Virus record (IMG/VR): IMGVR_UViG_2565956607_000008
Location: 1 to 20,816 of that record
From: a virus
Taxonomy: Duplodnaviria; Heunggongvirae; Uroviricota; Caudoviricetes
Length of the DNA stretch: 20,816 bases
Reading direction: 5' to 3' (one strand)
Shown here: positions 1,248-20,727 of the stretch, piece after piece
Layout of the letters: each line of letters starts with the position of its first letter
Position numbering within the stretch: the first letter of the stretch is position 1
Notes under the pieces: model-generated
Told to the model about the DNA's origin: nothing
Seen by the model: only the letters and a program-made list of their open reading frames with translations
The model's database searches: none
Made by a program: the position numbers and the translations under genes

Positions 1248-2003
1248 TTATTTTGGACGCTTTTTGGTTGCTTTTTTCTTAAATTTGGGGGCGTACTTAT
1301 CCAAAGCGTTCGTTAGCAATCTCCGAAATGTATCTGGGTGGGTATCGCTGTCTTCATCGTTCCCGAATATTATGTTGTTTTCTATTACTTGGGCACTAAC
1401 CCTATTGATACTAAGGTTTCCTCCACTATGGAAATCTTTGCTTGATTCAAATAAGGCAATCGCCATTCCGGCGATCATCTTTAAAGCCGTATCTTTTCCT
1501 CTCCAGTTTTGTTCTCTTTCTACTTTTTTTGACAGTGCTCCAATTTCTGGTTCGTTATCTGGAACATTCATATCCAGTTCTGGGAAGAAGTTCACAACCT
1601 CGGAGCGCTTGAAATAAAACGAATCGTAAGACCCATACCAATCATCCTCATCATCGTGATATAAAAAGTCTTCCCCTTTCCTAACGTTGAAAGTCCCTTC
1701 TTCCCCCGGTATCGGGCTCTCCCTGTATTCATGCCCCATAGCCAGAAGACCTAAAAACTCCACACACTGCTTTTCAAAGTCGTCATTAGTTGTAAAACCT
1801 GATACCCAATCGAACTGATAAAAGCCCAGCCCCCCTAAAGTATCTGGTTTAGCTTTGCTCAATCTGTAGTTACTTAAGATAGCGGCAGCGATCATTCTTT
1901 CATTTTCATTGTTTAGTCTTGCCAGTTCGCTGATCAGATTACCAAACCAGATTTTATCTTCTGACTCGTTATAAAACGCATCTAGTCCTGTCATCTTAGT
2001 CAC
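1248..2003 (-). CDS. Hypothetical cargo protein of unknown function (251 aa), translationally coupled to the integrase
   Basis: Start overlaps the integrase stop by 8 nt (1996..2003); acidic central region; no motif recognised. The antisense ORF 1156..1617 is judged spurious. Confidence 0.55.
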   Translation of the reverse strand: MTKMTGLDAFYNESEDKIWFGNLISELARLNNENERMIAAAILSNYRLSKAKPDTLGGLGFYQFDWVSGFTTNDDFEKQCVEFLGLLAMGHEYRESPIPGEEGTFNVRKGEDFLYHDDEDDWYGSYDSFYFKRSEVVNFFPELDMNVPDNEPEIGALSKKVEREQNWRGKDTALKMIAGMAIALFESSKDFHSGGNLSINRVSAQVIENNIIFGNDEDSDTHPDTFRRLLTNALDKYAPKFKKKATKKRPK

Positions 2004-3282
2004 GGCGTGTTCTCCTTCCGAACTCGTAAGGGCTTATATGTATTTCTCGATTGGCGTCCAGATAATCTGCCCACCATTGAAGCATTAGTTTGCGCTCTTC
2101 TAAGTAATCAGCCTTGTGCTTGTAGGCTCTTTTAACGTCTTTATATTCTTTGTGGCTCATCTGGCGCTCTACTGCGTCCTCCTGCCACAAACCGGACTCC
2201 ATCAGGGAACTACAGGCTGTGGCACGGAATCCATGTCCAGTTACGTCCTCTTGCGTGTTATAGCCCATTAAGCGTAATGCCTTGTTTACCGTGTTTTCAC
2301 TCATCACGCCTTTGGTGTTTCTTTCATTCGGAAACACAACATCGTAGCTTCCGCTTAGTTCTCTCAACTGCTTTACAATAGAAACAGCCTGACGGCTAAG
2401 AAGCACGATATGTTCGTCTTTTCCCGTTTTTGTGCCACGGGTGGAAAACCTCACACCATCGATAGGCTCTCTTTTTTTAGGGATAATCCACTCAGCCCGA
2501 TCAAGGTCAAACTCTTTCCAACGGGCAAACCTTAACTCGCTTGAACGAACAAATGTCAACATGGTTAGCTCAATGGCAAGGCGGGTAAGAGGATTACCTT
2601 TAAAGCTGCCCAATCGAGTGAAAAAGTCTGGTAAATCTCTGGGATGTAGTGCGGCATGATGCTTAGTTTCATATTGCATTAACCGGACATCGAGATCATT
2701 CGTGATGATTTCTGTCTTAATGCCGCTCAGACGGGCGCTATGTATGATGTCCTTAACTCGTTGTTTAAGTCGGTTGGCTGTATCGTGTTTCCCGGCGTCA
2801 TCTACCTTCTTAAACAAAGGTAAAATTGTCATCGCCTCCAGTTTGCGAATATCCGAAGTGCCAATGTGAGGGAAAATATACATTTCAAGGCTTCTAAGTA
2901 CGCGTTTTCGTTGGTCTTCGTTCCACATCTGGTGGCTTTCAACCCATTGACGTCCTATTGTCTCAAAAGTGAATGCGCCTTTTTCTTCTGCTTTTGCTGC
3001 TCTTTGCTCTGCTTTGGGATCTATCCCCTTGACTAACAACTTTTTGGCGTTGTCTCGTTTTTCTCTGGCGTCTTGTAAGCTAATGGTTGGATATACACCA
3101 AAAGCAAGTCTGTCTTCTTTCTTATCTGATGGGCGGCGATACTTCATTCGCCAATACTTCGACCCGGTCTGGGATACTTCAAGATAAAGACCACCACCAT
3201 CAGACAATTTATAAGTTTTGTCTCGTGGCTTAGCTGCTTTGCACTGACGGTCTGTTAATTTGTTGAGGGTATTTCTGGACAT
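1996..3282 (-). CDS. int: Tyrosine site-specific integrase, P4/CP4-57 type (428 aa)
   Basis: N-terminal DUF4102-like arm-binding pattern (LTDRQCKAAKP...DGGGLYLEV...YWRMKYR), C-terminal catalytic region with HGFRAT and later Y; lies 165 bp from the 3' end of the tRNA on the same strand. Confidence 0.9.
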   Translation of the reverse strand: MSRNTLNKLTDRQCKAAKPRDKTYKLSDGGGLYLEVSQTGSKYWRMKYRRPSDKKEDRLAFGVYPTISLQDAREKRDNAKKLLVKGIDPKAEQRAAKAEEKGAFTFETIGRQWVESHQMWNEDQRKRVLRSLEMYIFPHIGTSDIRKLEAMTILPLFKKVDDAGKHDTANRLKQRVKDIIHSARLSGIKTEIITNDLDVRLMQYETKHHAALHPRDLPDFFTRLGSFKGNPLTRLAIELTMLTFVRSSELRFARWKEFDLDRAEWIIPKKREPIDGVRFSTRGTKTGKDEHIVLLSRQAVSIVKQLRELSGSYDVVFPNERNTKGVMSENTVNKALRLMGYNTQEDVTGHGFRATACSSLMESGLWQEDAVERQMSHKEYKDVKRAYKHKADYLEERKLMLQWWADYLDANREIHISPYEFGRRTRRD

Positions 3283-3446: not shown

Positions 3447-3521
3447 TGGTGTCCCCTGCAGGAATCGAACCTGCAATTAGCCCTTAGGAGGGGCTCGTTA
3501 TATCCATTTAACTAAGGGGAC
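3447..3521 (-). tRNA. argW: tRNA-Arg (anticodon CCU)
   Basis: Reverse complement folds by hand into a 75-nt cloverleaf: 7-bp acceptor stem GTCCCCT/AGGGGAC, D-arm GTTA/TAAC, anticodon stem AGCCC/GGGCT with loop CTCCTAA (anticodon CCT), T-arm GCAGG-TTCGATT-CCTGC, discriminator A, CCA end. Confidence 0.9.
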
Positions 3522-3716
3522 ATAGAACTCACTGATTTTTAAGCGTTCAGCTTGTGTTGCATGTTATCCTATCATTCCCCGTACCATCAAGCATTTCATT
3601 CCTTTTATTTCCTTTCCGTTCGCATCAATTCGCTTAGAAAATCACTTCGTTCACTTGCCATTGCGTACACATTGAGTACAGAATGCAGAATTTCAGTGTG
3701 TACAGGATACAGAGCC

Positions 3717-4892
3717 GTGGCCCTTAGTGATACCAAACTCCGTAGCATCAATGCTAAGCCATACAGCGGCGCAGCTGAGGTCACAGATGGTGACGGGCTA
3801 AGTGTACGCATAACTCCCACAGGCACGATCACATTCCAGTTTCGTTATCGCTGGAACGGTAAGCCCGTTCGTCTCTCCATTGGCCGCTATCCCGCTATGT
3901 CTCTCAAGGAGGCGCGCGTAGTCGTCGGTGAGATGCGCGAATTGTACCTCAAGGGACTAAACCCGAAAAATTATTTTGCCAAAGAAGATGGCGAGTTGAC
4001 TCTCAAAGAGTGCCTGGATCAGTGGTGGGGTAAGTATGTTGAAACGCTGAAGCCGAACACTCAGACGCTGTACAAGTCCGTTGTGTACAACACGATGTAC
4101 ACAGAATTCCCGGACGCTCCGGTAGTTAACATTCCTATTTCTGCATGGGTGCGTTTCTTTGATAAGCAGGAAAAGAAGAACAGCAAAAAGGCCAGAGTGC
4201 TTCTTCTACAGCTACGTTCTGTAATGAACTGGTGTATCAGCCGCCAGTTGATCCCATCGTGCGAGGTCCTGAAGCTTAGCGTTAAGAGCATTGGGAAAAA
4301 ACCTGATGTGGGTAGCCGAGTTCTCACATATACCGAGTTGGCAAAAATCTGGCTGGCGCTGGAGAATAACAAGATCGTGACTTCCAACAAGGTGCTTCAT
4401 CAGCTGCTTTTGCTTTGGGGAGCCAGGCTATCAGAGCTGCGTCTGGCTACCGCCAGTGAATTTAACATGGATGATCTTATCTGGACGACGCCAGGAGAGC
4501 ATTCCAAGATGGGTAACGTTATCCGTCGCCCGGTGTTTGGCCAGGTGAAACCTTTTGTTGAAAGGCTCCTCAATGCTGGAAATGATGTTCTGTTTCCCGG
4601 CCAGGAACTGGACAAGCCAATAGATCGCTCATCAGCTAATCTCTATATGAAAAAGTTAAGGAATAAAATTGATATCCCAGAATGGCGAACACATGACTTC
4701 AGGCGCTCGCTGGTGACAAATTTATCAGGTGAAGGGGTTATGCCCCACGTCACCGAAAAGATGTTGGGGCATGAGTTGGGAGGAGTGATGGCGGTGTATA
4801 ACAAGCACGATTGGCTGGTAGAACAGAAAGAAGCATATGAGCTATATGCAGATAAAATTTTTTGGCATGTCAAGAAAATAAATGACCAATAA
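3717..4892 (+). CDS. int: Tyrosine integrase of the lambdoid prophage (about 391 aa; GTG start proposed)
   Basis: The ORF track gives 3552..4892, but the conserved integrase N-terminus (ALSDTKLRSINAKP...DGDGLSVRI...FQFRYRWNGK) begins at an in-frame GTG at 3717 preceded by AGGA; C-terminal catalytic region has HDFRRS. Start choice is uncertain. Confidence 0.8.
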   Translation: MALSDTKLRSINAKPYSGAAEVTDGDGLSVRITPTGTITFQFRYRWNGKPVRLSIGRYPAMSLKEARVVVGEMRELYLKGLNPKNYFAKEDGELTLKECLDQWWGKYVETLKPNTQTLYKSVVYNTMYTEFPDAPVVNIPISAWVRFFDKQEKKNSKKARVLLLQLRSVMNWCISRQLIPSCEVLKLSVKSIGKKPDVGSRVLTYTELAKIWLALENNKIVTSNKVLHQLLLLWGARLSELRLATASEFNMDDLIWTTPGEHSKMGNVIRRPVFGQVKPFVERLLNAGNDVLFPGQELDKPIDRSSANLYMKKLRNKIDIPEWRTHDFRRSLVTNLSGEGVMPHVTEKMLGHELGGVMAVYNKHDWLVEQKEAYELYADKIFWHVKKINDQ

Positions 4893-4928
4893 CTTTAGAC
4901 GTAAGTATTGAATTCTCTGGGGTATGAA

Positions 4929-6245
4929 ATGGAAATGATATTTAATGAAGATAAAGATATTGAAAATGCATTGCAGTGGCTATCTAAAACTCTACCAGAA
5001 CCTAATTCATTGTTTGATAGAATGTGTCTGGCACAAGAGAGTTATATTAAAGAATCGGCCTTGAAGGTTAATATTGGAAAGGAATCGAAAATAGAATGGC
5101 ATGGATGTGATGTTGTCGCAGGTTTTTTCTCTCAAGCTAAATCCTATCTTGATAATCGACGTTCTTATGATATTTCAGCTGCATCTAAAATACTTCCTTG
5201 GGTGAAACAACTTGGTGTTAATGTTGAATATCTTAACAATATTCCAGGTGCGGTAGAACGTGCTAAAAGGATGTTGGAAAGTTATACCGTTTATCCGGAT
5301 AATGCATTGTTTGAATTAATATTAGCAGGAAATTATGCGGCTAAAGGTTTCGATGTTGAGTTTATACCTGAGCAGAAAGGAATAGCTAAAACTCCTGAGT
5401 TTAAATGTAGCTTTGATGGTAAGGCTCTTTTTGTTGTTGAATGCAAAAGATTAAAAAAGGGGCAATACGCCCAACAAGAGGAGTCGGCTCATTCAACAAG
5501 AGCTTCTTTTATTGAATCTCGTGTACATCTGAAAAGAATGAGTGTCTGGATGGATGTCACATATAAATGTGAAGTAAATGAAACACCGGACGATTATCTT
5601 TTAAAACATTTATGTAATTATTATGGGAAAGAATATTCCTGGAGTGATGACTACGGTAGTGGTTTTATAAAGCCTGCAAATTTGCGTAGGGTGAATGATG
5701 ATATTAAATTGAACGGTTCTCTATCATTACACACCAAATTGGCAAGACTAATTAAAACATCTCCACTCGATGGTGAGTTTTACAATGTTTATGCGTTTGG
5801 TCGACCAGATGAACGAGATCCACGTTTTTTCTCTAAAATTAATTATGCAACATTACTGACATGGCGAAATGTAAGCGAGGTGTCATTAGAAAACAGGTCC
5901 AGGCATATCACTAAACATTTAAAAGAAATTGAAGATCAAATATCAAATAATGGACTTGGTGTAGGGCATTTAGTTATTGATGCTGACGTACAAAAAGATG
6001 TCGCTGATAAACGGAGGGAAAAAAATATTGAGGCTGCACTTTCTTTCCGGATAAAGTCCAAGCTTGTTCGGTTAAATATTCATTATCTTGTTCCTCGTGT
6101 TGATGAAGATAATTCGTGGCTGGTGGACGAAACTCTTGAATTTTTCAGCGGTGACGAGTTGATTAGTCATTTGTTTCCTGAGGTGAAATTATTTTCAGGG
6201 ATGGAACTTTTTGAAAATGATTTGCCTGCATGGCATCAGAAATGA
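4929..6245 (+). CDS. AT-rich cargo protein with a PD-(D/E)xK nuclease-like motif (about 438 aa)
   Basis: ATG at 4929 preceded by GGGG (ORF track uses TTG at 4908). Residues GFDVEF...x...FVVECKRL give a D...ExK pattern. Immediately downstream of the integrase and followed by an intrinsic terminator. Confidence 0.6.
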   Translation: MEMIFNEDKDIENALQWLSKTLPEPNSLFDRMCLAQESYIKESALKVNIGKESKIEWHGCDVVAGFFSQAKSYLDNRRSYDISAASKILPWVKQLGVNVEYLNNIPGAVERAKRMLESYTVYPDNALFELILAGNYAAKGFDVEFIPEQKGIAKTPEFKCSFDGKALFVVECKRLKKGQYAQQEESAHSTRASFIESRVHLKRMSVWMDVTYKCEVNETPDDYLLKHLCNYYGKEYSWSDDYGSGFIKPANLRRVNDDIKLNGSLSLHTKLARLIKTSPLDGEFYNVYAFGRPDERDPRFFSKINYATLLTWRNVSEVSLENRSRHITKHLKEIEDQISNNGLGVGHLVIDADVQKDVADKRREKNIEAALSFRIKSKLVRLNIHYLVPRVDEDNSWLVDETLEFFSGDELISHLFPEVKLFSGMELFENDLPAWHQK

Positions 6246-6476: not shown

Positions 6477-6998
6477 TCATTCAAAATTACCGTTAAAAAT
6501 ACACGTTCCACACCCACCGCGAGCCCCTTCAGTACAAACATCACAGCGATCTACTTTTTTACGAGGTCGTTCTTTGATGTGCAGCCTTGGTTCCCCGTCT
6601 TTTGGTTCCGGCCATGAGCGCTGCTTGTTCACCGCCAGCTTTTCGATCATCGCCTGGGTAATCTGCTCATCTGCAATACCGGAACGGTGCTGAGCGTCCC
6701 ACAACAGGAACTGCATATCCGCCCACTCTGAAAGGTCGTCTGGTGCCGCTGCGGCCTCCAGCGCTTCTTTGCTGAGGTGCTTCAGCGGGCCAACCGGGCC
6801 GACATTGCCGAAAGTTGCCTGTGACCACTCGGCGTGCTCGTTGCGTACCTGTTCTCTGTCCATTGCGTCCAGTGCTATGCGGGCCAGCGCTTCAGCTTCT
6901 TCTGCTGGCAGCATTACGTTGCTTCCAGCTCCATAGGTTCCACGCCATGATTTAATTTTTTCCAGGCGCTCTCTCGCCAGTTTGGTTATATCAGTCAT
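6477..6998 (-). CDS. MazG-like nucleotide pyrophosphohydrolase domain protein (DUF550-like) with C-terminal Cys cluster (about 173 aa)
   Basis: Start ATG 6996..6998 overlaps the upstream stop (ATGACTGA); EWADMQFLLWDA resembles the MazG-type E-x-x-D helix; C-terminal CDVC...CGTC. The longer ORF-track N-terminus overlaps a convincing neighbouring gene. Confidence 0.55.
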   Translation of the reverse strand: MTDITKLARERLEKIKSWRGTYGAGSNVMLPAEEAEALARIALDAMDREQVRNEHAEWSQATFGNVGPVGPLKHLSKEALEAAAAPDDLSEWADMQFLLWDAQHRSGIADEQITQAMIEKLAVNKQRSWPEPKDGEPRLHIKERPRKKVDRCDVCTEGARGGCGTCIFNGNFE

Positions 6999-7191
6999 CG
7001 GAGTTATCCTCGCAGCAGTAGTGAGCGCCGTCCGGGTCAGTACTTTTGAAACCGCAGATATCACACTCAATTTCGTCATGGGCTTCTTCATCGCATTCGT
7101 GACTTTCCGGATCGTCGGCTTTGTAATAACCGCCGCACAAATTGCAGCGGACTTCTGCCACATCGTCATAGTTAGTAGTCCCGGTTATCAT
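6991..7191 (-). CDS. Small highly acidic cysteine-rich protein (66 aa), zinc-ribbon-like
   Basis: Translation rich in D/E with CxxC...C...CxxC...CC; ATGA overlap with the upstream gene at 7188..7191. Confidence 0.55.
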   Translation of the reverse strand: MITGTTNYDDVAEVRCNLCGGYYKADDPESHECDEEAHDEIECDICGFKSTDPDGAHYCCEDNSDD

Positions 7192-7427: not shown

Positions 7428-7623
7428 GCTTCACCTCGATAGGCTTGATGGTGTCGAGCAGCAGTCGGCGGCGCGTATTTTCTGCAAAGTGACGGCGCCC
7501 GGTTTCTTTGTGGTAAAACTCGTTTTTGCCGACGACCCACATCCGCTCTGTCTGGTGCAGTTTTTTTACCTTCGGACCGTCTTTGGTGATAACGGTGCCG
7601 GTATGGGTTTTTACGATTGTCAT
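7420..7623 (-). CDS. Hypothetical early-operon protein (about 67 aa)
   Basis: Internal ATG 7621..7623 preceded by GGGGAGG; ATGA overlap with the stop of the ParB-like gene. Confidence 0.5.
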   Translation of the reverse strand: MTIVKTHTGTVITKDGPKVKKLHQTERMWVVGKNEFYHKETGRRHFAENTRRRLLLDTIKPIEVKHV

Positions 7624-8405
7624 ACAGCCTCCCCAAGCACCCAACGGAGTGCGCTCGCATACTCACCCTCGGCTGATTCCAGGGCTTTTGTGATTTCTTT
7701 GCGGGTTTTCAGGCGCGGCTTTGCCTCGCCGAGGATCTGACGCTGACGCCGGGCTTTTTCATGGCCGGTTGTGCCAGCAGTTGCCGCTTCGATTTCAGAT
7801 ACCTTCTCCCGCTGCTCTTCAGGTTTAAGCGATGCCAGCTGACGCGCCTGGGTAACAGTGACCGTTCCGGACTCCACTGCATCGCGAACAGCCTGGGTGG
7901 CATCCAGCAGTGACAGCGTTGCGCGTACGGTCTGGACACTCACGCCAAACATCAGCGCTAAATCGTCCTCGTCGTGCCCGCGCTCCAGCGCATCAGCCAT
8001 TTTCTTTGCTCGGCCCAGTGGCGTATCTGCTTGGCGGATTTCGTTAGCACTTACCATCGCCTGCGCCATGCGAACGGCGGAGCCACGTTTAGCGACTGCC
8101 GGAACCAGTAACGGTTCTTTACCCTCTTTCAACAGTCGCTTGTTGGCTTCCAGTGTATGGCGCACACGCTGGCGACCATCGACTACACAAGACAGCCCTG
8201 TTTCCGGGTCTTTCCAGACGATAATCGGCTCAAGAACGCCCTGATCCATGATGTTCAGCACCATTGCCTCGCTGATAGGCAGGTGGATACGCTCATCGTA
8301 AAGCGGGTGCGTTTTGTCCGTAACCAAGTGCAGGTTTTCAGGTTCGAACGTTAAAACATTCGTTTTGCCGCTGGCGCCGTATACCACCTTTGAGTCTTTA
8401 GCCAT
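7620..8405 (-). CDS. ParB-like nuclease domain protein (261 aa)
   Basis: VVDGRQRVRHTLEA resembles the ParB/sulfiredoxin-fold arginine motif; common in lambdoid early regions. Confidence 0.65.
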   Translation of the reverse strand: MAKDSKVVYGASGKTNVLTFEPENLHLVTDKTHPLYDERIHLPISEAMVLNIMDQGVLEPIIVWKDPETGLSCVVDGRQRVRHTLEANKRLLKEGKEPLLVPAVAKRGSAVRMAQAMVSANEIRQADTPLGRAKKMADALERGHDEDDLALMFGVSVQTVRATLSLLDATQAVRDAVESGTVTVTQARQLASLKPEEQREKVSEIEAATAGTTGHEKARRQRQILGEAKPRLKTRKEITKALESAEGEYASALRWVLGEAV

Positions 8406-14225: not shown

Positions 14226-14570
14226 ATGCGTGATATGTATGAAATTTTAGACCGCTGGGGAGCATGGGCTGCAGCTGATAGTAGTGGTGTTGATTGGAAA
14301 CCCATTGCCGCAGGTTTTAAAGGTTTGTTACCTCATGGAAAGAAAACACGTCATCAATGCGATGATGATGAAGGAATCATGATTGACGGCTGTGTAGCGC
14401 GATTGCGGAAGTATAAGCCAGAAGAGTATGAGTTAATAATTGCTCATTTTGTTATTGGTTTCTCATTAAGAAGCATCGCGAAGAAACGGAAGTGTTCTGA
14501 TGGGACCATCAGGAAGGAATTGCAGACTGCAATGGGGTTTGTAGATGGTTGTTTAGAAATGGTTAACTGA
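14226..14570 (+). CDS. Late-gene antitermination protein Q (QuuD-like family; 114 aa)
   Basis: MRD...LDRWGAWAA...DWKPIAAGFKGL...RHQCDDDEG...DGCVARL...CSDGTIRKELQTAMGFVDGCL closely follows the pattern I recall for DLP12-type Q antiterminators. Confidence 0.8.
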   Translation: MRDMYEILDRWGAWAAADSSGVDWKPIAAGFKGLLPHGKKTRHQCDDDEGIMIDGCVARLRKYKPEEYELIIAHFVIGFSLRSIAKKRKCSDGTIRKELQTAMGFVDGCLEMVN

Positions 14571-14594
14571 AGTCTTAATGTGACTTCAGTTAAC
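14562..14594. terminator. Perfect 13-bp-stem hairpin (33-bp palindrome) between convergent Q and the reverse-strand cassette
   Basis: GTTAACTGAAGTC-TTAATGT-GACTTCAGTTAAC; overlaps the Q stop codon; only weak U-tracts on either side, so it may be a bidirectional terminator or a protein-binding palindrome. Confidence 0.4.
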
Positions 14595-14606
14595 ATTAAC
14601 GGCTAA

Positions 14607-15068
14607 TTAAAAGCTTTTAAGATATTTGCTTTTGATTTTTTCACTAACACTTTGTAATTCATGCAGTGTTGTGCCAACTTTATCAGCTTCATATTTTGTG
14701 TCATTGGTACATGCTTGGCGCAACTCTGCTATGAAACCTGTATCTTTTGTGCGGCTTGCATCAAGGAGTTGAATGCGTTCACATATAAACTCAACATGCC
14801 GTACGGACGATGTAAATATGAAATAAGATACTCTTTTGTCTTTTTCTTTATTCTCAAGTAGTTCCAGCATTTCACTATAAATGAAATCTAACTTGTAAAA
14901 CAACTCGTCTATCAATCTGTTTATTTCAAGTTTTTTGAGATTGTTTGCATTATTTTTCCGCGCCAAGTAGGCAGTAACTATCCATCCAATGATAGTTAAA
15001 CATATGCCCACAATAGCAATTATGGTAGCTGGTAGTGCCCATAAATTTGGAGTAACGGCTTGTTCCAT
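14607..15068 (-). CDS. Cassette gene C: single-pass membrane protein with helical cytoplasmic domain (153 aa)
   Basis: N-terminal hydrophobic helix (LWALPATIIAIVGICLTIIGWIVTAYLA) then charged helical region; 1-nt TAATG overlap with gene B; GAGGGATG ribosome-binding site; AT-rich. Confidence 0.7.
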   Translation of the reverse strand: MEQAVTPNLWALPATIIAIVGICLTIIGWIVTAYLARKNNANNLKKLEINRLIDELFYKLDFIYSEMLELLENKEKDKRVSYFIFTSSVRHVEFICERIQLLDASRTKDTGFIAELRQACTNDTKYEADKVGTTLHELQSVSEKIKSKYLKSF

Positions 15069-15385
15069 TATTTGGCATCCCTCAGAGCATCATTGATATA
15101 AGTAACAACCTCGGCAACTAATGCCGGATCCTTACTTTTAAGATTTTTCTTTAGGTTGTTAATCTTATCTTTGCTGATTCCCTTTCGCACCAGTCCACCA
15201 AAGGCCTCCTCCAAAAATGAGGATCCATACCCGAAAACCCCGTCAAAGTCAACGCAAATTTCATCATTTTCCAGTATTGCAGGAACTAAATAAAATTCGC
15301 GGAATTTTTCGCCACTATTCTCTCCAAGCGACTCGTAGCGAGGGCCAGGATATCTGGAGAATTCCTTGATATATAAAGTTTTCAT
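15068..15385 (-). CDS. Cassette gene B: STAS-like (DUF4325-like) small protein (105 aa)
   Basis: VDFDGVFGYGSSFLEEAFGGL parallels the anti-sigma-factor-antagonist motif around the phosphorylatable serine; strong AAGGAGAAG ribosome-binding site; ATGA overlap with gene A. Confidence 0.7.
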   Translation of the reverse strand: MKTLYIKEFSRYPGPRYESLGENSGEKFREFYLVPAILENDEICVDFDGVFGYGSSFLEEAFGGLVRKGISKDKINNLKKNLKSKDPALVAEVVTYINDALRDAK

Positions 15386-16482
15386 GCCGCTTCTCCTTCA
15401 GTTGGTAGTGGCACACTCCACTCAACAATTGTACCATTGATGGATTTATGAGCATCCCACATCAATTCGGGCCTTGCTTTCTTCCTTTTAGTATATCTGT
15501 AGTTCCCCTTGTTTGATATGATTCTGAGTTGGGCATGTGTAAAATTATCTATAATTGATTGTAAATCCGTGCCGCCTTTCCCTCTGTAACCAAGTTTTGT
15601 TCTTGTGCGTTTAACCTGTAATGATGCTTTTATATGCTCTGAATCTAATTCAATAGGCTTGCCTATAATTTCAATAAGTTTTGATAAAACTCTTTCTCCT
15701 TGAGTTAATTTCAAAGTTTTGGGAATTCCAACTCCTAAATCGCATATGGATAAAATCAATTTATTATTCATTATTGCTGCAAAACACCACCATTTATTTT
15801 TAATGTTGTTCTTTTGCTTGTCGTATAGATCATCTCTATATGCGTGCTCTACCGAGTTGGACATCGCCTCAATTAGAGGTCTGTATAAATTAGTGTAATC
15901 CGTTCCCATTTTCTCAGTTACTGCTTCTAATAGTTTCCCAGCAATTGTAGAATCAACCAGTTCACCTCTAATAACCTCCCAGCACTTAACAGATGGGTTC
16001 TCTTTCATCTCTCGACCTTTTACCCCAAATGCAGAATATATACCAATACGGTTAAGTACGCTATCAACTACATGATGTTCGCCTTTCTGTGTAGTTTTGA
16101 ATGGAGGGCGAGTTACAGTGTATCTTATATCTGGATAGTTACTTTTTAAACTCTCCAGTTTTGCTAGTAAATATAATCCTGCAGCGGCCGATATGTAAAT
16201 CGTATTTCTGAAGCAAACATATATTTTTTGAGTTTTAAACTGCTCTTGCTTGGCTTTTTTTTCAATATTTTCAATAAAACTTATTACGTTGTCATGGTAA
16301 TTAGAGTTATAGATATCAAGAATAGTAGGTGCAACTATTTTTTCAGAATTTGATTTTCGTATGTTACCATTACGTTTGTATCTTTTGTGTTCGGTTGACT
16401 TTTTGCTTGCGTTTGCACGGAGAAACCTTTTTCTCCTTATTCTTTTTAACACTGAAGTATAGAGCTGTTCTATTTTTTTCAT
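15382..16482 (-). CDS. Cassette gene A: protein with basic N-terminal region and C-terminal GHKL/HATPase-like ATP-binding domain (366 aa)
   Basis: AAGGAG ribosome-binding site 8 nt upstream; N-box-like EAMSNSVEHAY (E205..N209..H213), G1-like CDLGVGI (D248xGxG), G2-like GYRGKGGTDL (about 299..308); AT-rich. Confidence 0.7.
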   Translation of the reverse strand: MKKIEQLYTSVLKRIRRKRFLRANASKKSTEHKRYKRNGNIRKSNSEKIVAPTILDIYNSNYHDNVISFIENIEKKAKQEQFKTQKIYVCFRNTIYISAAAGLYLLAKLESLKSNYPDIRYTVTRPPFKTTQKGEHHVVDSVLNRIGIYSAFGVKGREMKENPSVKCWEVIRGELVDSTIAGKLLEAVTEKMGTDYTNLYRPLIEAMSNSVEHAYRDDLYDKQKNNIKNKWWCFAAIMNNKLILSICDLGVGIPKTLKLTQGERVLSKLIEIIGKPIELDSEHIKASLQVKRTRTKLGYRGKGGTDLQSIIDNFTHAQLRIISNKGNYRYTKRKKARPELMWDAHKSINGTIVEWSVPLPTEGEAA

Positions 16483-16707
16483 TTTACTCGACTCCTTGAT
16501 GTAATAATCAGCTCAGTTTACAAAAACACTAACGCGTACGCAAAAACTATCGTAATCTGTTAAGAGTGGTCACTTCGACACGAACTTAAAACATATTGAA
16601 GCCTCGCTTTTGCGGGTTTTGTTCCGTTCAGGGCTCTTGGGTTGAGATGTTCTGCATGACACATCGCAAGTAAGCATCTTCTGGCGCCTTTGACAGAGTG
16701 TTACATA

Positions 16708-16737
16708 TTGACTAACACAAAGTTTACAAATTAGATT
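16708..16737 (+). promoter_or_regulatory. Putative late promoter (pR'-like)
   Basis: TTGACT (16708..16713), 17-18 bp spacer, TTAGAT/TAGATT (16731..16737); upstream of a non-coding leader ending in terminators before the lysis genes. Sequence-only prediction. Confidence 0.3.
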
Positions 16738-17010
16738 ATCGACATGGTGAATCCCCCTATGCGGTGGGGCGACCAGTCACTTACAGTGATCTGTAAATGC
16801 AGCGCGGGCCATGTCGACTGGGACATGCTCACCGGGAGGCACCCGGCACCATACAATGCTACTAAGCTATTTGGTAGTGGGGTTGCCGTTTCGGCTTCTC
16901 CAGCTATGTTTAAAAGGTAGTAACGGAAAACGAGCGCTCTCCTGGTAAATCGGTAGCTCGGACTATTAGGTGCGCCTCGTTCCGTTGCAGAATCAGTATT
17001 GCCTACCTTC

Positions 17011-17037
17011 TGCCCGCCCCTCTGAGCGGGCTTTTTT
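17011..17037 (+). terminator. Intrinsic terminator (tR'-like) in the late leader
   Basis: GCCCGC-CCCTCTGA-GCGGGC followed by TTTTTTT. Confidence 0.6.
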
Positions 17038-17083
17038 TCGCCATGAATAAGTCTCCCCGGCAAGATGAGGAACAAATCATTTG

Positions 17084-17113
17084 AGGCTGCGCTTATGCGC
17101 GGCCTTTTTCATT
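17084..17113 (+). terminator. Second intrinsic terminator upstream of the holin
   Basis: GGCTGCGC-TTAT-GCGCGGCC (8-bp stem with one G-U pair) followed by TTTTTCATTT. Confidence 0.5.
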
Positions 17114-17216: not shown

Positions 17217-17528
17217 ATGGCAAAGCATATGCAAGACAAAGAAAGCATGGCCGGAATCACCTGGCTGGCTCTGCTGATCATTGCTGGCTGGGGCGGCCTT
17301 GTCCGATTCCTGATGGATGTGAAGCAGGGCAAAGCGAAATGGAGTTGGATAAATGCTTTTGCGCAGATTGTGGTTTCGGCGTTTACCGGGGTCATTGGTG
17401 GGCTCATCAGCATTGAAGGTGGCCTGAGTATTTACATGATACTGGCCACGGCCGGTATCAGTGGCGCTATGGGTTCCGTAGCGCTCACGTATTTCTGGGA
17501 ACGAATTACCGGAGTGAAAGCACAATGA
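17217..17528 (+). CDS. Holin (103 aa, multi-TM)
   Basis: GGAGGTG ribosome-binding site; hydrophobic helices with charged C-terminus; immediately upstream of and overlapping (ATGA) the endolysin gene. Confidence 0.75.
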   Translation: MAKHMQDKESMAGITWLALLIIAGWGGLVRFLMDVKQGKAKWSWINAFAQIVVSAFTGVIGGLISIEGGLSIYMILATAGISGAMGSVALTYFWERITGVKAQ

Positions 17529-18064
17529 CAGCAGAACAGATTATCGAGGGGATCCTCGGCAAAGAGGGTGGTTATGTCGATCACCCCTCTGATAAAGGCG
17601 GGCCAACCCGCTGGGGCATCACGCAAACCACAGCTCGCGCACATGGCTACACCGGTGATATGCGAAACCTGCCCAGGGAAACAGCAAAGCAAATCCTGCT
17701 GAGCGATTACTGGACCGGCCCCCGGTTCGACCAGGTAGCAGCTCTATCTACGTTACTGGCAGACGAGCTTTGCGACACTGGCGTGAACATGGGGCCCAGC
17801 GTCGCCAGTAAGTTTTTCCAGCGCTGGCTCACTGCCCTGAACATGCGCGGGAAGCTTTATCCAGACCTTATCCCAGATGGCGCGATTGGACCCCGAACCA
17901 TCACCGCTCTGAAGGGGTATCTTTCTGCCCGCGGGAAAGAAGGCGAGCTGGTTTTGCTAAGAGCATTGAATTGCAGTCAGGGCGCCAGATACCTCGAACT
18001 GGCGGAGGGCCGCGAAGCCAACGAGGATTTTCTCTACGGCTGGGTTAAGGAGCGTGTCCTGTGA
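17525..18064 (+). CDS. Endolysin, GH108 family with peptidoglycan-binding domain (179 aa)
   Basis: N-terminal EGGYVDHPSDKGGPTRWGITQ is the hallmark of glycoside hydrolase family 108. Confidence 0.85.
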   Translation: MTAEQIIEGILGKEGGYVDHPSDKGGPTRWGITQTTARAHGYTGDMRNLPRETAKQILLSDYWTGPRFDQVAALSTLLADELCDTGVNMGPSVASKFFQRWLTALNMRGKLYPDLIPDGAIGPRTITALKGYLSARGKEGELVLLRALNCSQGARYLELAEGREANEDFLYGWVKERVL

Positions 18065-19821: not shown

Positions 19822-20727
19822 CTATATTTCCAGACACCTGTCATCACTTAACCCATTACTGGCCCGCTGCCGTAGATATTCCCGTGGCGAGCGATAACCC
19901 AGTGCACTATGCGGATGCCATTCGTTATAATGCTCGAACGCCTCTGCAAGGTTCTTTGCTGCCGTTAACCCGTCTGGTTTGGGCATGATACTGATGTAAT
20001 CACGCTTTATCGTTTTCACGAAGCTCTCTGCTATGCCGTTACTCTCCGGACTCCGCACCGCCGTGTTCTTCGGTTCAAGTCCCAACATCCGGGCGAACTG
20101 GCGTGTTTCATTAGCCCGGTAGCATGAACCATTATCCGTCAGCCACTCCACTGGAGATGTCGGAAGCTCGCTGCCGAAGCGGCGTTCCACCGCTCCCAGC
20201 ATGACGTCCTGTACTGTTTCACTGTTGAAGCCGCCCGTAGTGACCGCCCAGTGCAGTGCCTCACGGTCACAGCAGTCCAGCGCGAACGTGACTCGCAGTC
20301 TCTCTCCGTTATCACAGCAGAACTCGAACCCGTCAGAGCACCATCGCTGATTGCTTTCTTTCACGGCCACTCTGCCTGTATGTGCCCGTTTCGATGGCGG
20401 TACAGCAGGTTTTCGCTCAAGCAACAGCGCATTCTGGCGCATGATCCGGTAAACACGTTTGGCATTGATCGCAGGCATACCATCAAGTTCTGCCTGTCTG
20501 CGAAGCAGCGCCCATACCCGACGATAACCATACGTGGGCAGCTCTCCGATAACATGGTGTATACGGAGAAGCACATCCGTATCATCAGTGTGACGACTGC
20601 GGCGGCCATCCATCCAGTCATCGGTTCGTCTGAGAATGACGTGCAACTGCGCACGCGACACCCGGAGACAACGGCTGACTAAGCTTACTCCCCATCCCCG
20701 GGCAATAAGGGCGCGTGCGCTATCCAC
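19822..20727 (-). CDS. insD: IS2 transposase OrfB (InsD; 301 aa)
   Basis: Translation [43 protein letters not shown]... with DDE-type integrase core matches IS2 InsD as I recall it. Confidence 0.95.

Follow-up and report, generated by a model that had tools for sequence, protein, structure and literature searches.

A kinase-STAS-membrane protein cassette in a variable cargo slot between antiterminator Q and its predicted late control region in a lambdoid prophage

Introduction

Chambers et al. (EMBO J 2026; PMC13373217) described CapK/CapS and the three-gene operon VapKSC. In the latter, VapK, which combines a STAS and a GHKL kinase domain, phosphorylates the STAS protein VapS at Ser48 and thereby releases the PIN toxin VapC, and the operon, a kinase-gated toxin-antitoxin, affords about 100-fold protection against phage Bas42 (PMC13373217). 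In CapK-CapS, a cue leads a GHKL-domain kinase to phosphorylate a conserved serine of a STAS protein; CapS carries a winged-helix domain and represses a downstream immune operon (PMC13373217). Here we describe an operon that bears a likeness to both, K-S-T, in a stretch of 20,816 nucleotides from a virus of the class Caudoviricetes (IMG/VR record IMGVR_UViG_2565956607_000008, positions 1 to 20,816; hereafter the window). The window is a lambdoid prophage, 100% identical to E. coli p10A/p10B, and K, S and T lie on its minus strand between the antiterminator gene Q and the lysis genes.

Cargo genes between Q and lysis genes have classical precedents in stx of Stx phages and in the porin genes lc/nmpC of PA-2 and DLP12. 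Like these, the K-S-T genes are accessory, foreign in composition and situated in the Q-to-S interval; however, stx sits downstream of the late promoter PR' and the terminator tR', within the late transcript, whereas the slot considered here appears to lie upstream of PR', on the opposite strand, and to be served by a promoter built into the phage backbone. The control elements concerned are best described for Q21-type antitermination cassettes, which consist of Q, a Q-binding element, a sigma-dependent pause element and a terminator. Q21 itself is a protein of 162 amino acids whose binding element comprises two direct 8-bp repeats (Yin, Kaelber and Ebright 2019, bioRxiv 10.1101/651190). A further element of relevance below is STnc100, a prophage small RNA (sRNA) family related to PasD (bioRxiv 10.64898/2026.05.13.724894). 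An initial annotation, made from the sequence of the window alone, had already drawn attention to the cassette and had assigned the late promoter to a site further downstream.

Results

An AT-rich cassette lies between Q and the lysis genes

The gene that ends at 14570 and that the initial annotation had called Q (14226-14570, plus strand, 114 amino acids) carries a PF06530 domain (E 1.5e-46, 113 of 118 model positions), the domain that marks the Q21 family, and we regard it as a subtype of that family. It matches the Q21 structure chains 6P18/6JNX weakly (E 6e-4), likewise gives weak matches to extracytoplasmic function (ECF) sigma factors, and has a helix-turn-helix resembling sigma region 4 in its C-terminal half. 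Rightwards from Q, the order is reverse-oriented K-S-T, the putative Q site and PR' region with a first terminator, an STnc100-like unit with a second terminator, a third terminator, and the holin gene.

The three minus-strand open reading frames (K, 15382-16482; S, 15068-15385; T, 14607-15068) overlap at start and stop codons (ATGA and TAATG). The description of this segment as about 1.9 kb of AT-rich DNA with three genes on the opposite strand is confirmed by the composition check that had been proposed alongside it: G+C content is 36.1% across 14571-16514, compared with 55.7% for the DUF968 gene, 51.9% for the holin gene and 57.2% for the endolysin gene, and G+C at third codon positions (GC3) is 0.29-0.41 in the cassette versus 0.58-0.63 in the flanks. 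Q itself is AT-rich (42% G+C, GC3 0.36; its upstream neighbour has 56% and 0.61), and homology to related prophages breaks inside the 3' end of Q, at 14401 against strain YJ4 and at 14548 against SCU-308. Q, cargo and Q site look like a single module, mosaic and exchangeable.

Between the convergent genes Q and T lies a hairpin (14562-14594) whose left arm contains the Q stop codon. It is not the perfect 33-bp palindrome that had been reported but an inverted repeat with a perfect 13-bp stem (14562-14574 and 14582-14594) around a non-palindromic 7-nt loop. It folds strongly (-19.2 and -18.0 kcal/mol, z -6.4 and -7.3), and there is no U-tract beside it on either strand. In a related locus with a variant K-S-T cassette (L031; K about 77% identical), a true bidirectional terminator occupies the position of this junction hairpin.

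A Q-linked block beside the cassette as probable late control region

Abutting the start of the cassette is a conserved block of about 75 bp (16515-16590) that occurs in 847 of 5426 E. coli genomes. The initial annotation had missed it, along with a third terminator at 16603-16625. In every annotated locus inspected, the block stands to the right of reverse-oriented cargo and downstream of this Q family. A scan of IMG/VR for the 18-mer CTAACGCGTACGCAAAAA (16529-16546, plus strand), together with the loci at hand, yielded 141 loci with 85 distinct upstream flanks. Of the 50 loci in which upstream DNA extends for at least 3.5 kb, 48 have a Q-family gene upstream of the block, and the distance from the end of Q to the block ranges from 146 to 2938 bp (median 1.55 kb). 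Two loci are particularly informative. In SfII, nothing but the block and its terminator separates cargo from holin gene, with 170 bp from block to holin; the same holds for L031, where the intergenic region spans about 280 bp. With only the block between cargo and holin in both, the late promoter must lie in the block.

The internal structure of the block points in the same direction. Its right half, beginning with TGTTAAGAGTGGT, is common to all relatives, while the 18 nt to the left of it fall into discrete classes, each made up of a short palindrome followed by a run of A or T. The palindromes are GCGTACGC in the window (16534-16541), TACGTACGTA, GCGGnCCGC (strain YJ4), TGTTATAACA, TTCGTtACGAA, TTACAATCGTAA and TGGAATTCCA. 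The 18-mer of the window, which is invariant in relatives and includes the first of these, is our candidate Q-binding element. Q alleles covary with palindrome class: Q identity is 0.85 within and 0.50 between classes, and for the C-terminal half 0.78 and 0.39, respectively. Considering the stretch resembling a helix-turn-helix, the nearest neighbour of a Q protein shares its palindrome class in 71 of 74 cases, and the observed difference within versus between classes was reached in none of 2000 permutations of the labels. The closest pair of Q proteins from different classes shows most of its differences in the predicted recognition helix, and a few base changes separate the two sites.

To the right of the palindrome, 16548-16580 (plus strand) would constitute the rightward late promoter and pause region, containing TATCGT (16548-16553), TAATCT (16553-16558), TGTTAAGAGTGGT and the 13-mer TGGTCACTTCGAC (16567-16579), which we take to be present also in the 6S/late-leader region of lambda. 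All 102 distinct sequences have a TAnnnT hexamer at offset 24, the position of TAATCT, and 76 of them have one at offset 19 too. TATCGT, TAATCT and AAGAGT are candidates for the -10 element of PR' or for the pause element. The block is followed by a first, tR'-like intrinsic terminator (16598-16625, plus strand; -10.7 kcal/mol, then UUUUGUU), with an equivalent after the block in relatives, which is predicted to end a late-leader RNA of roughly 60-95 nt. A search of 16515-16625 against Rfam in E-value mode returned no family, and the folding of the leader RNA is not unusual (z = +0.5).

Taken together, 16529-16625 is most likely a Q-linked late control region. In it, a palindromic site specific to the Q allele is followed by an invariant hexamer resembling a -10, by a conserved initial transcribed sequence and by a terminator. 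Two points weigh against this assignment. Covariation between Q and the palindrome could be inflated by physical linkage, so that we infer, rather than observe, that Q binds the palindrome; and no canonical -35 can be assigned to a rightward promoter in the block. Even so, we hold the structural description given here, including the relocation of the late control region, to be very probably correct. The relocation would apply to a large Q subfamily that includes Shiga-toxin phages, where the predicted allele-specific palindromic Q sites bear on the switching of toxin and lysis genes.

How does this region compare with a Q21-type cassette? Both have a Q protein with a PF06530 domain, and the window has, by prediction, a Q-specific DNA element beside a -10-like hexamer as well as a short leader closed by an intrinsic terminator ahead of the late genes. 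Unlike Q21, the Q protein of the window is only 114 amino acids long, and its candidate element is the short palindrome GCGTACGC rather than two tandem direct 8-bp repeats. Furthermore, Q21 and its site are adjacent, whereas here 0.15-2.9 kb of reverse-oriented cargo separates the two.

The promoter at 16708 belongs to an STnc100-family unit

The initial annotation had located the Q-dependent late promoter elsewhere, at TTGACT-N18-TAGATT (16708-16737), with 16745-17010 as its leader and the following two hairpins as tR'. This alternative has some appeal. The hexamers (TTGACT at 16708-16713, an 18-bp spacer and TAGATT at 16732-16737) are good, the -35 being identical to that of lambda PR', and the unit is located just upstream of the lysis genes with two strong terminators after it. 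Note that in the window a promoter scan found 5 sites when 7.6 were expected from shuffled sequence, which is not above chance, so a match to the consensus is in itself no evidence for a promoter. Across 19 distinct loci, however, a TTGAC-type -35 and a TAnnnT -10 recur at a fixed position, the -10 ending 8 nt before GGTGAATCCCC.

The same comparison separates the site from Q. The sequence 16715-16907 matches the Rfam family RF02076 (STnc100) with 76.2 bits, above the gathering score of 47, and the supposed 300-nt late leader with its terminator is a separate unit of this family (16708-17037, plus strand), with a predicted start near 16744 and a terminator at 17012-17037. This unit is found 159-3335 bp from the block, in some loci in two copies; in Klebsiella phage 1 LV-2017 (L014) it comes after a Q of the DUF1133 type, in Stx2a_1447 it follows stx2B, and it is absent from SfII and L031, both of which have the same Q family as the window. 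Nothing in the unit covaries with the Q allele. Being positionally conserved yet variably placed relative to the Q block, 16708-16737 is a genuine promoter that is not tied to this Q, and we consider it highly improbable that it is the Q-dependent late promoter. Thus the promoter-like element that had been noticed exists and is conserved, with the longer of the two spacers allowed for, but it serves an sRNA; and the cassette does lie between Q and the Q site, upstream of the late promoter and convergent with Q, only that this promoter is to be sought in the block at 16529-16625, which comparison of loci links to Q (48 of 50).

STnc100/PasD sRNAs typically lie in the late region of a prophage, and the unit of the window does so as well. 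Unlike the Rfam model, the unit of the window appears to extend to the terminator at 17012-17037, making it about 294 nt long, and the first 30 positions of the model align to the apparent promoter. Both terminator-like hairpins reported ahead of the holin gene are present, at 17012-17031 (followed by T7) and 17083-17106 (followed by T5). The latter belongs to the terminator just before the lysis genes (17083-17113, plus strand; -19.3 kcal/mol, z -5.6), which is common to all relatives and whose equivalent serves as tR' in strain YJ4. The lysis genes themselves, for a LydA-type holin (RefSeq start 17229) and a GH108 endolysin, occupy 17217-18064 on the plus strand.

The block also carries a probable promoter for variable cargo

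The left edge of the block holds a candidate sigma-70 promoter that reads leftward into the cassette (16515-16543, minus strand), with a -35 of TTGCGT (16543-16538), a 17-bp spacer and a -10 of TAAACT (16520-16515). Transcription is predicted to start near 16508, ahead of a Shine-Dalgarno sequence read from the sequence of K (AAGGAG, 16492-16497, minus strand, 9 nt before the ATG at 16482). Among the 85 distinct flanks sharing the 18-mer, 52 have TAnnnT exactly 17 bp past TTGCGT and a further 7 have it at 16 or 18 bp, compared with 0-10 flanks at every other offset. The earlier suggestion that the cassette has a promoter of its own is therefore very probable (52 of 85 flanks). Conservation on the plus strand amounts to just the three positions that define the leftward -10 hexamer and stops at position -14, suggesting that the backbone supplies the promoter and that cargo begins at about the transcription start. 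Against this counts that the -10 rule is clear for palindrome class A only and does not extend cleanly to classes B and C. A plus-strand pair, TTGATG-17-TACAAA, was also considered as -35 and -10 and was dropped because there is no positional signal upstream of the block beyond the minus-strand -10.

As the leftward promoter recurs before at least 85 distinct cargo flanks, we view the site as a slot for changing cargo that comes with a promoter of its own. In prophages that share this backbone, Q is followed by other cargo in reverse orientation, namely a DUF6731 gene and a hypothetical gene in YJ4 and a gene for a 237-amino-acid protein in SCU-308. O104:H4 has the nucleoid-associated protein NA37 with a partner, and other gene pairs are found in ST131, mEp460, SfII and an Stx2a phage. 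The cassette is consequently not conserved backbone, as the comparison with related prophages suggested in the initial annotation makes plain. That annotation had further called the cassette inserted. It is indeed foreign and variable, being present in 2 of 5426 complete E. coli genomes (p10A and p10B), but the site is better described as a standing hot spot for cassette exchange than as one of simple insertion. Cargo families cross palindrome classes (DUF6731 occurs with both class A and class C), indicating that cargo moves while Q and its site stay matched. Of the features expected of a moron, deviant composition and variable presence are observed; the -35 of the supported promoter belongs to the backbone, and the 3' hairpin has no U-tract. 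Stx2a_1447 exhibits both cargo arrangements, the stx type and the upstream reverse slot.

What does the slot carry? Among 69 first-gene products, five match the PDC-S42 model, five each match ATPase models of OLD, GajA, AriA, PtuA and HEC-01A (possibly the same five proteins), at least two (L051 and SfII) match PDC-M53A, nine others are NA37-type, and most belong to no family. A high-turnover slot with a backbone promoter, at least 85 flanks and mostly family-less first genes is a source of candidate defence genes.

The leftward -35 overlaps the Q palindrome, so Q binding could switch cargo off late in infection. Extending this idea, the interval from Q to PR' throughout this Q family, to which Stx1a, Stx2a, SfII, cdtI and mEp460-type phages belong, might be a general slot for cargo expressed in the lysogen. 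Q that builds up at the lytic switch would load onto RNA polymerase for late transcription and would also shut off defence cargo, so sparing the phage's own lytic cycle, and K-S-T would then represent a new class of effector, a membrane helical bundle, controlled by a VapK/VapS-type pair. We put this forward tentatively, as a combination of claims that is rather less likely than not to hold in full.

One IMG/VR contig (L129) has an apparently empty slot, in which Q ends 146 bp before the first block. At oriented positions of about 1200-1800 it contains three tandem units, each with the 18-mer, a TA(A/G)TCT hexamer, a short transcribed region that differs between units, and a terminator; these look like three successive sRNA genes, each bearing a Q site.

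A kinase-STAS pair with a probable remote relationship to VapK and VapS

K (366 amino acids) consists of a basic N-terminal tail, a STAS-like domain and a GHKL Ser/Thr kinase domain of the SpoIIAB/RsbW type, the anti-sigma kinases to which its fold is nearest. K has no Pfam match. Some of its homologs (111 at E <= 0.001, several annotated as ATP-binding protein) carry PF13581 or PF02518, and the boxes of the Bergerat fold are readily located in K (E205-N209-E212-H213; D248-x-G250-x-G252; R300-G301-x-G303), with the ATP-binding N, G1 and G2 boxes invariant across 62 homologs.

S (105 amino acids) is a STAS-like DUF4325 protein (PF14213, E 3.2e-14) and a candidate for both the substrate of the kinase and the neutraliser of T. 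Its motif D48-G-x-x-G-Y-G-S55-S56-F-L has invariant D48, G52, G54, S56, F57 and L58, with S55 present in at least 90% of homologs. The conserved Ser-Ser occupies the canonical STAS phospho-site: S55 aligns both with the GSSF motif of the STAS protein 3t6o and with the FASPFF serine of VapS chain 9z7o_A, which we infer to be the phospho-acceptor Ser48 described by Chambers et al. S matches only positions 343-439 of the 441-position profile phrog_5816, and some phages therefore encode far larger proteins with a C-terminal DUF4325, possibly kinase-STAS fusions.

T (153 amino acids), the candidate effector, has an N-terminal transmembrane helix running into a cytoplasmic four-helix bundle. The two are continuous in the structural model (predicted local distance difference test score 87.9), and the positive-inside rule, applied to the sequence, predicts that most of the protein is cytoplasmic. 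The T family is small, with 15 representative clusters in 1.8 billion proteins. All three proteins fall into PHROGs families of unknown function and NCBIfam returned nothing useful for any of them; sequence searches of the PDB gave nothing significant for K or T, and for S no more than marginal matches to STAS proteins and VapS.

The comparison with VapKSC is most direct for an ortholog from Rahnella bruchi, in which VapS is a DUF4325 protein (PF14213, E 2.5e-17) and VapC a PIN protein. A profile of the K family aligns collinearly with its VapK over 234 columns (E 4.4e-5), matching the N, G1 and G2 motifs. Both operons run from kinase to STAS protein to third gene, with overlapping genes; K, like VapK, joins STAS-like and GHKL domains; S and VapS are both DUF4325 proteins whose STAS phospho-site holds a conserved serine; and both trios are found on mobile elements, near defence genes. 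They differ in that K is longer than VapK (366 versus 298 amino acids) and has a basic N-terminal tail of 45 amino acids, and, above all, in the third gene, which encodes a PIN nuclease in VapKSC and a single-pass membrane protein with a helical bundle in K-S-T. T has no PIN match and shares no profile similarity with VapC. Relative to CapS, S has no DNA-binding domain and there is no operon downstream of the cassette for it to repress. K-S-T also departs from SpoIIAB-SpoIIAA/RsbW-RsbV partner switching, given that the operon has no sigma factor, K has a STAS-like domain of its own and the third partner is a membrane protein. We conclude that K and S are probably remote relatives of VapK and VapS, with T in the position of VapC, and that K-S-T is best read as a VapKSC-like sensor half joined to a putative membrane effector in place of the third defining feature.

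The trio is confined to mobile elements

Beyond the two E. coli genomes, the index of an assembly collection lists the identical T protein in 298 blocks. In the eight of these that were inspected (one being E. coli p10B), the cassette is always beside Q while the lysis cassettes downstream differ. With K identities of 34-47%, trios of the same order and with the same gene overlaps are found in 186-like prophages, in a Rac-like prophage, on a Vibrio island and in Marinobacter phage AS1, and the T proteins of these various trios align with one another. The 186-like prophages carry the trio on the same strand between cI and int, and in AS1 it directly follows a repressor-like gene; this position beside repressor genes points to expression in the lysogen. 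The trio was found exclusively on mobile elements.

In the Vibrio island (L010/L011, 8102-9455) a "mini" trio adjoins the full one. Its first protein (193 amino acids) is a GHKL-only homolog of K that lacks the STAS-like domain (hhalign probability 96%, E 1.4e-9), and it is followed by a second DUF4325 protein and a T-like protein of 147 amino acids.

Defence and other possible roles

What might the trio do for its host? By analogy with VapKSC, we envisage the following sequence of events. Leftward transcription of K-S-T from about 16508 would take place in the lysogen, independently of late transcription, and would end near the hairpin at 14562-14594. S would bind the membrane protein T and keep it inactive, as suggested by VapKSC and by SpoIIAB/SpoIIAA. 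Upon infection, K would sense a cue, perhaps DNA that is single-stranded or damaged, with the STAS/kinase interface or the basic N-terminal tail as possible sensing sites, and would phosphorylate S at Ser55 or Ser56; S would let go of T, and freed T would damage or depolarise the inner membrane and abort the infection. When the prophage itself is induced, Q-modified transcription from PR' would pass the three terminators (16603, 17012 and 17083) and the STnc100-family unit into the holin gene.

Defence is our best guess because the sensor pair matches a demonstrated anti-phage system, because the trio resides exclusively on mobile elements and turns over quickly, because its contexts suggest expression in the lysogen, and because other cargo in the same slot matches models of OLD/Gabija/PARIS-type ATPases, PDC-S42 and PDC-M53A. 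Several observations argue against it. The link between K and VapK is remote (hhalign probability 69%), and S does not match VapS significantly by sequence alone (E 0.77 and 0.09). No toxin or pore motif can be recognised in T, whose fold matches are generic; at an E-value limit of 0.1, K, S and T all lack a match in PADLOC 2.0 (PADLOC-DB 2.0); the PDC models stand for candidate defence systems only; and the cue sensed by K is a guess. On balance, we give slightly better than an even chance to an anti-phage mechanism in which a kinase gates a membrane effector expressed in the lysogen. If this is true, a kinase-STAS sensor pair described only in 2026 would extend from a nuclease toxin to a membrane effector and thus be a modular sensor, and K-S-T would provide a small, testable system of three genes.

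Given the location of the cassette, one might suppose instead that K-S-T regulates its own prophage, with K acting as an anti-sigma-like inhibitor of the sigma-4-like Q, or T setting the time of lysis as a membrane sensor or an antiholin. K does have the fold of anti-sigma factor kinases, Q is weakly ECF-sigma-like, and the cassette adjoins both Q and the lysis genes. But the trio occurs without a nearby Q in 186-like prophages (between cI and int), in the Vibrio island and in the immunity region of AS1, the slot beside Q carries dozens of unrelated cargos, and the cassette is found in only 2 of 5426 E. coli genomes. A regulatory role of this kind strikes us as very unlikely.

A second possibility is superinfection exclusion without cell death, where T would block DNA entry or an early membrane step and K and S would tune T. 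The small size and single membrane pass of T suit such a role, as do the lysogen-expressed contexts of the trio. However, a constitutive blocker would need no kinase-substrate pair, the nearest characterised relative is a gated toxin, and T is predicted to lie mostly in the cytoplasm; we regard exclusion as unlikely. Somewhat less likely again is an addiction module, a toxin-antitoxin that retains the prophage or the cassette and has no anti-phage role. The gene overlaps, the toxin-antitoxin-like layout and the exclusive association with mobile elements would all fit. Yet a kinase input implies a trigger that depends on a signal, VapKSC protects against phage, and other cargo types at the slot are defence-like. 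We found no description of the K-S-T trio or of the slot in the literature, and it is possible that either was described previously in the E. coli prophage defence screen of Brenes and Laub.

Other features of the window

From left to right, the window contains two tyrosine integrase genes around tRNA-Arg(CCT), genes for a cI-like repressor and a CII-like protein, a replication gene, Dam and a DUF968/HNH gene, followed by Q, the cassette, the LydA-type holin and GH108 endolysin genes and an IS3-type transposase gene. The integrase genes (1996-3282, minus strand, and 3552-4892, plus strand) lie on either side of the tRNA gene (3447-3521), which suggests that two elements integrated at or beside one tRNA-Arg(CCT) gene. 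Directly 3' of the prophage integrase is an open reading frame of 445 amino acids (4908-6245, plus strand; 35.8% G+C) for which Pfam and PADLOC searches gave no match. The frame represents a further AT-rich cargo gene, in this case at the other classical position for cargo in prophages. The early-left region further includes a gene of the dATP/dGTP pyrophosphohydrolase family (6477-7169, minus strand) and a ParB-HTH gene (7620-8405, minus strand).

At the right end, about 1 kb past the lysis genes, lies the transposase gene of the IS3 family (rve, HTH_21; 19822-20727, minus strand). The prophage may be interrupted or truncated at this point, which bears on its inducibility. In related prophages, genes for anti-defence sponges of the Acb2/Tad1 type are found just 3' of the lysis cassette (L002, 5412-5705; L004, 6319-6603; L028, 926-1210), so that defence-like and anti-defence cargo occur on both sides of one late region.

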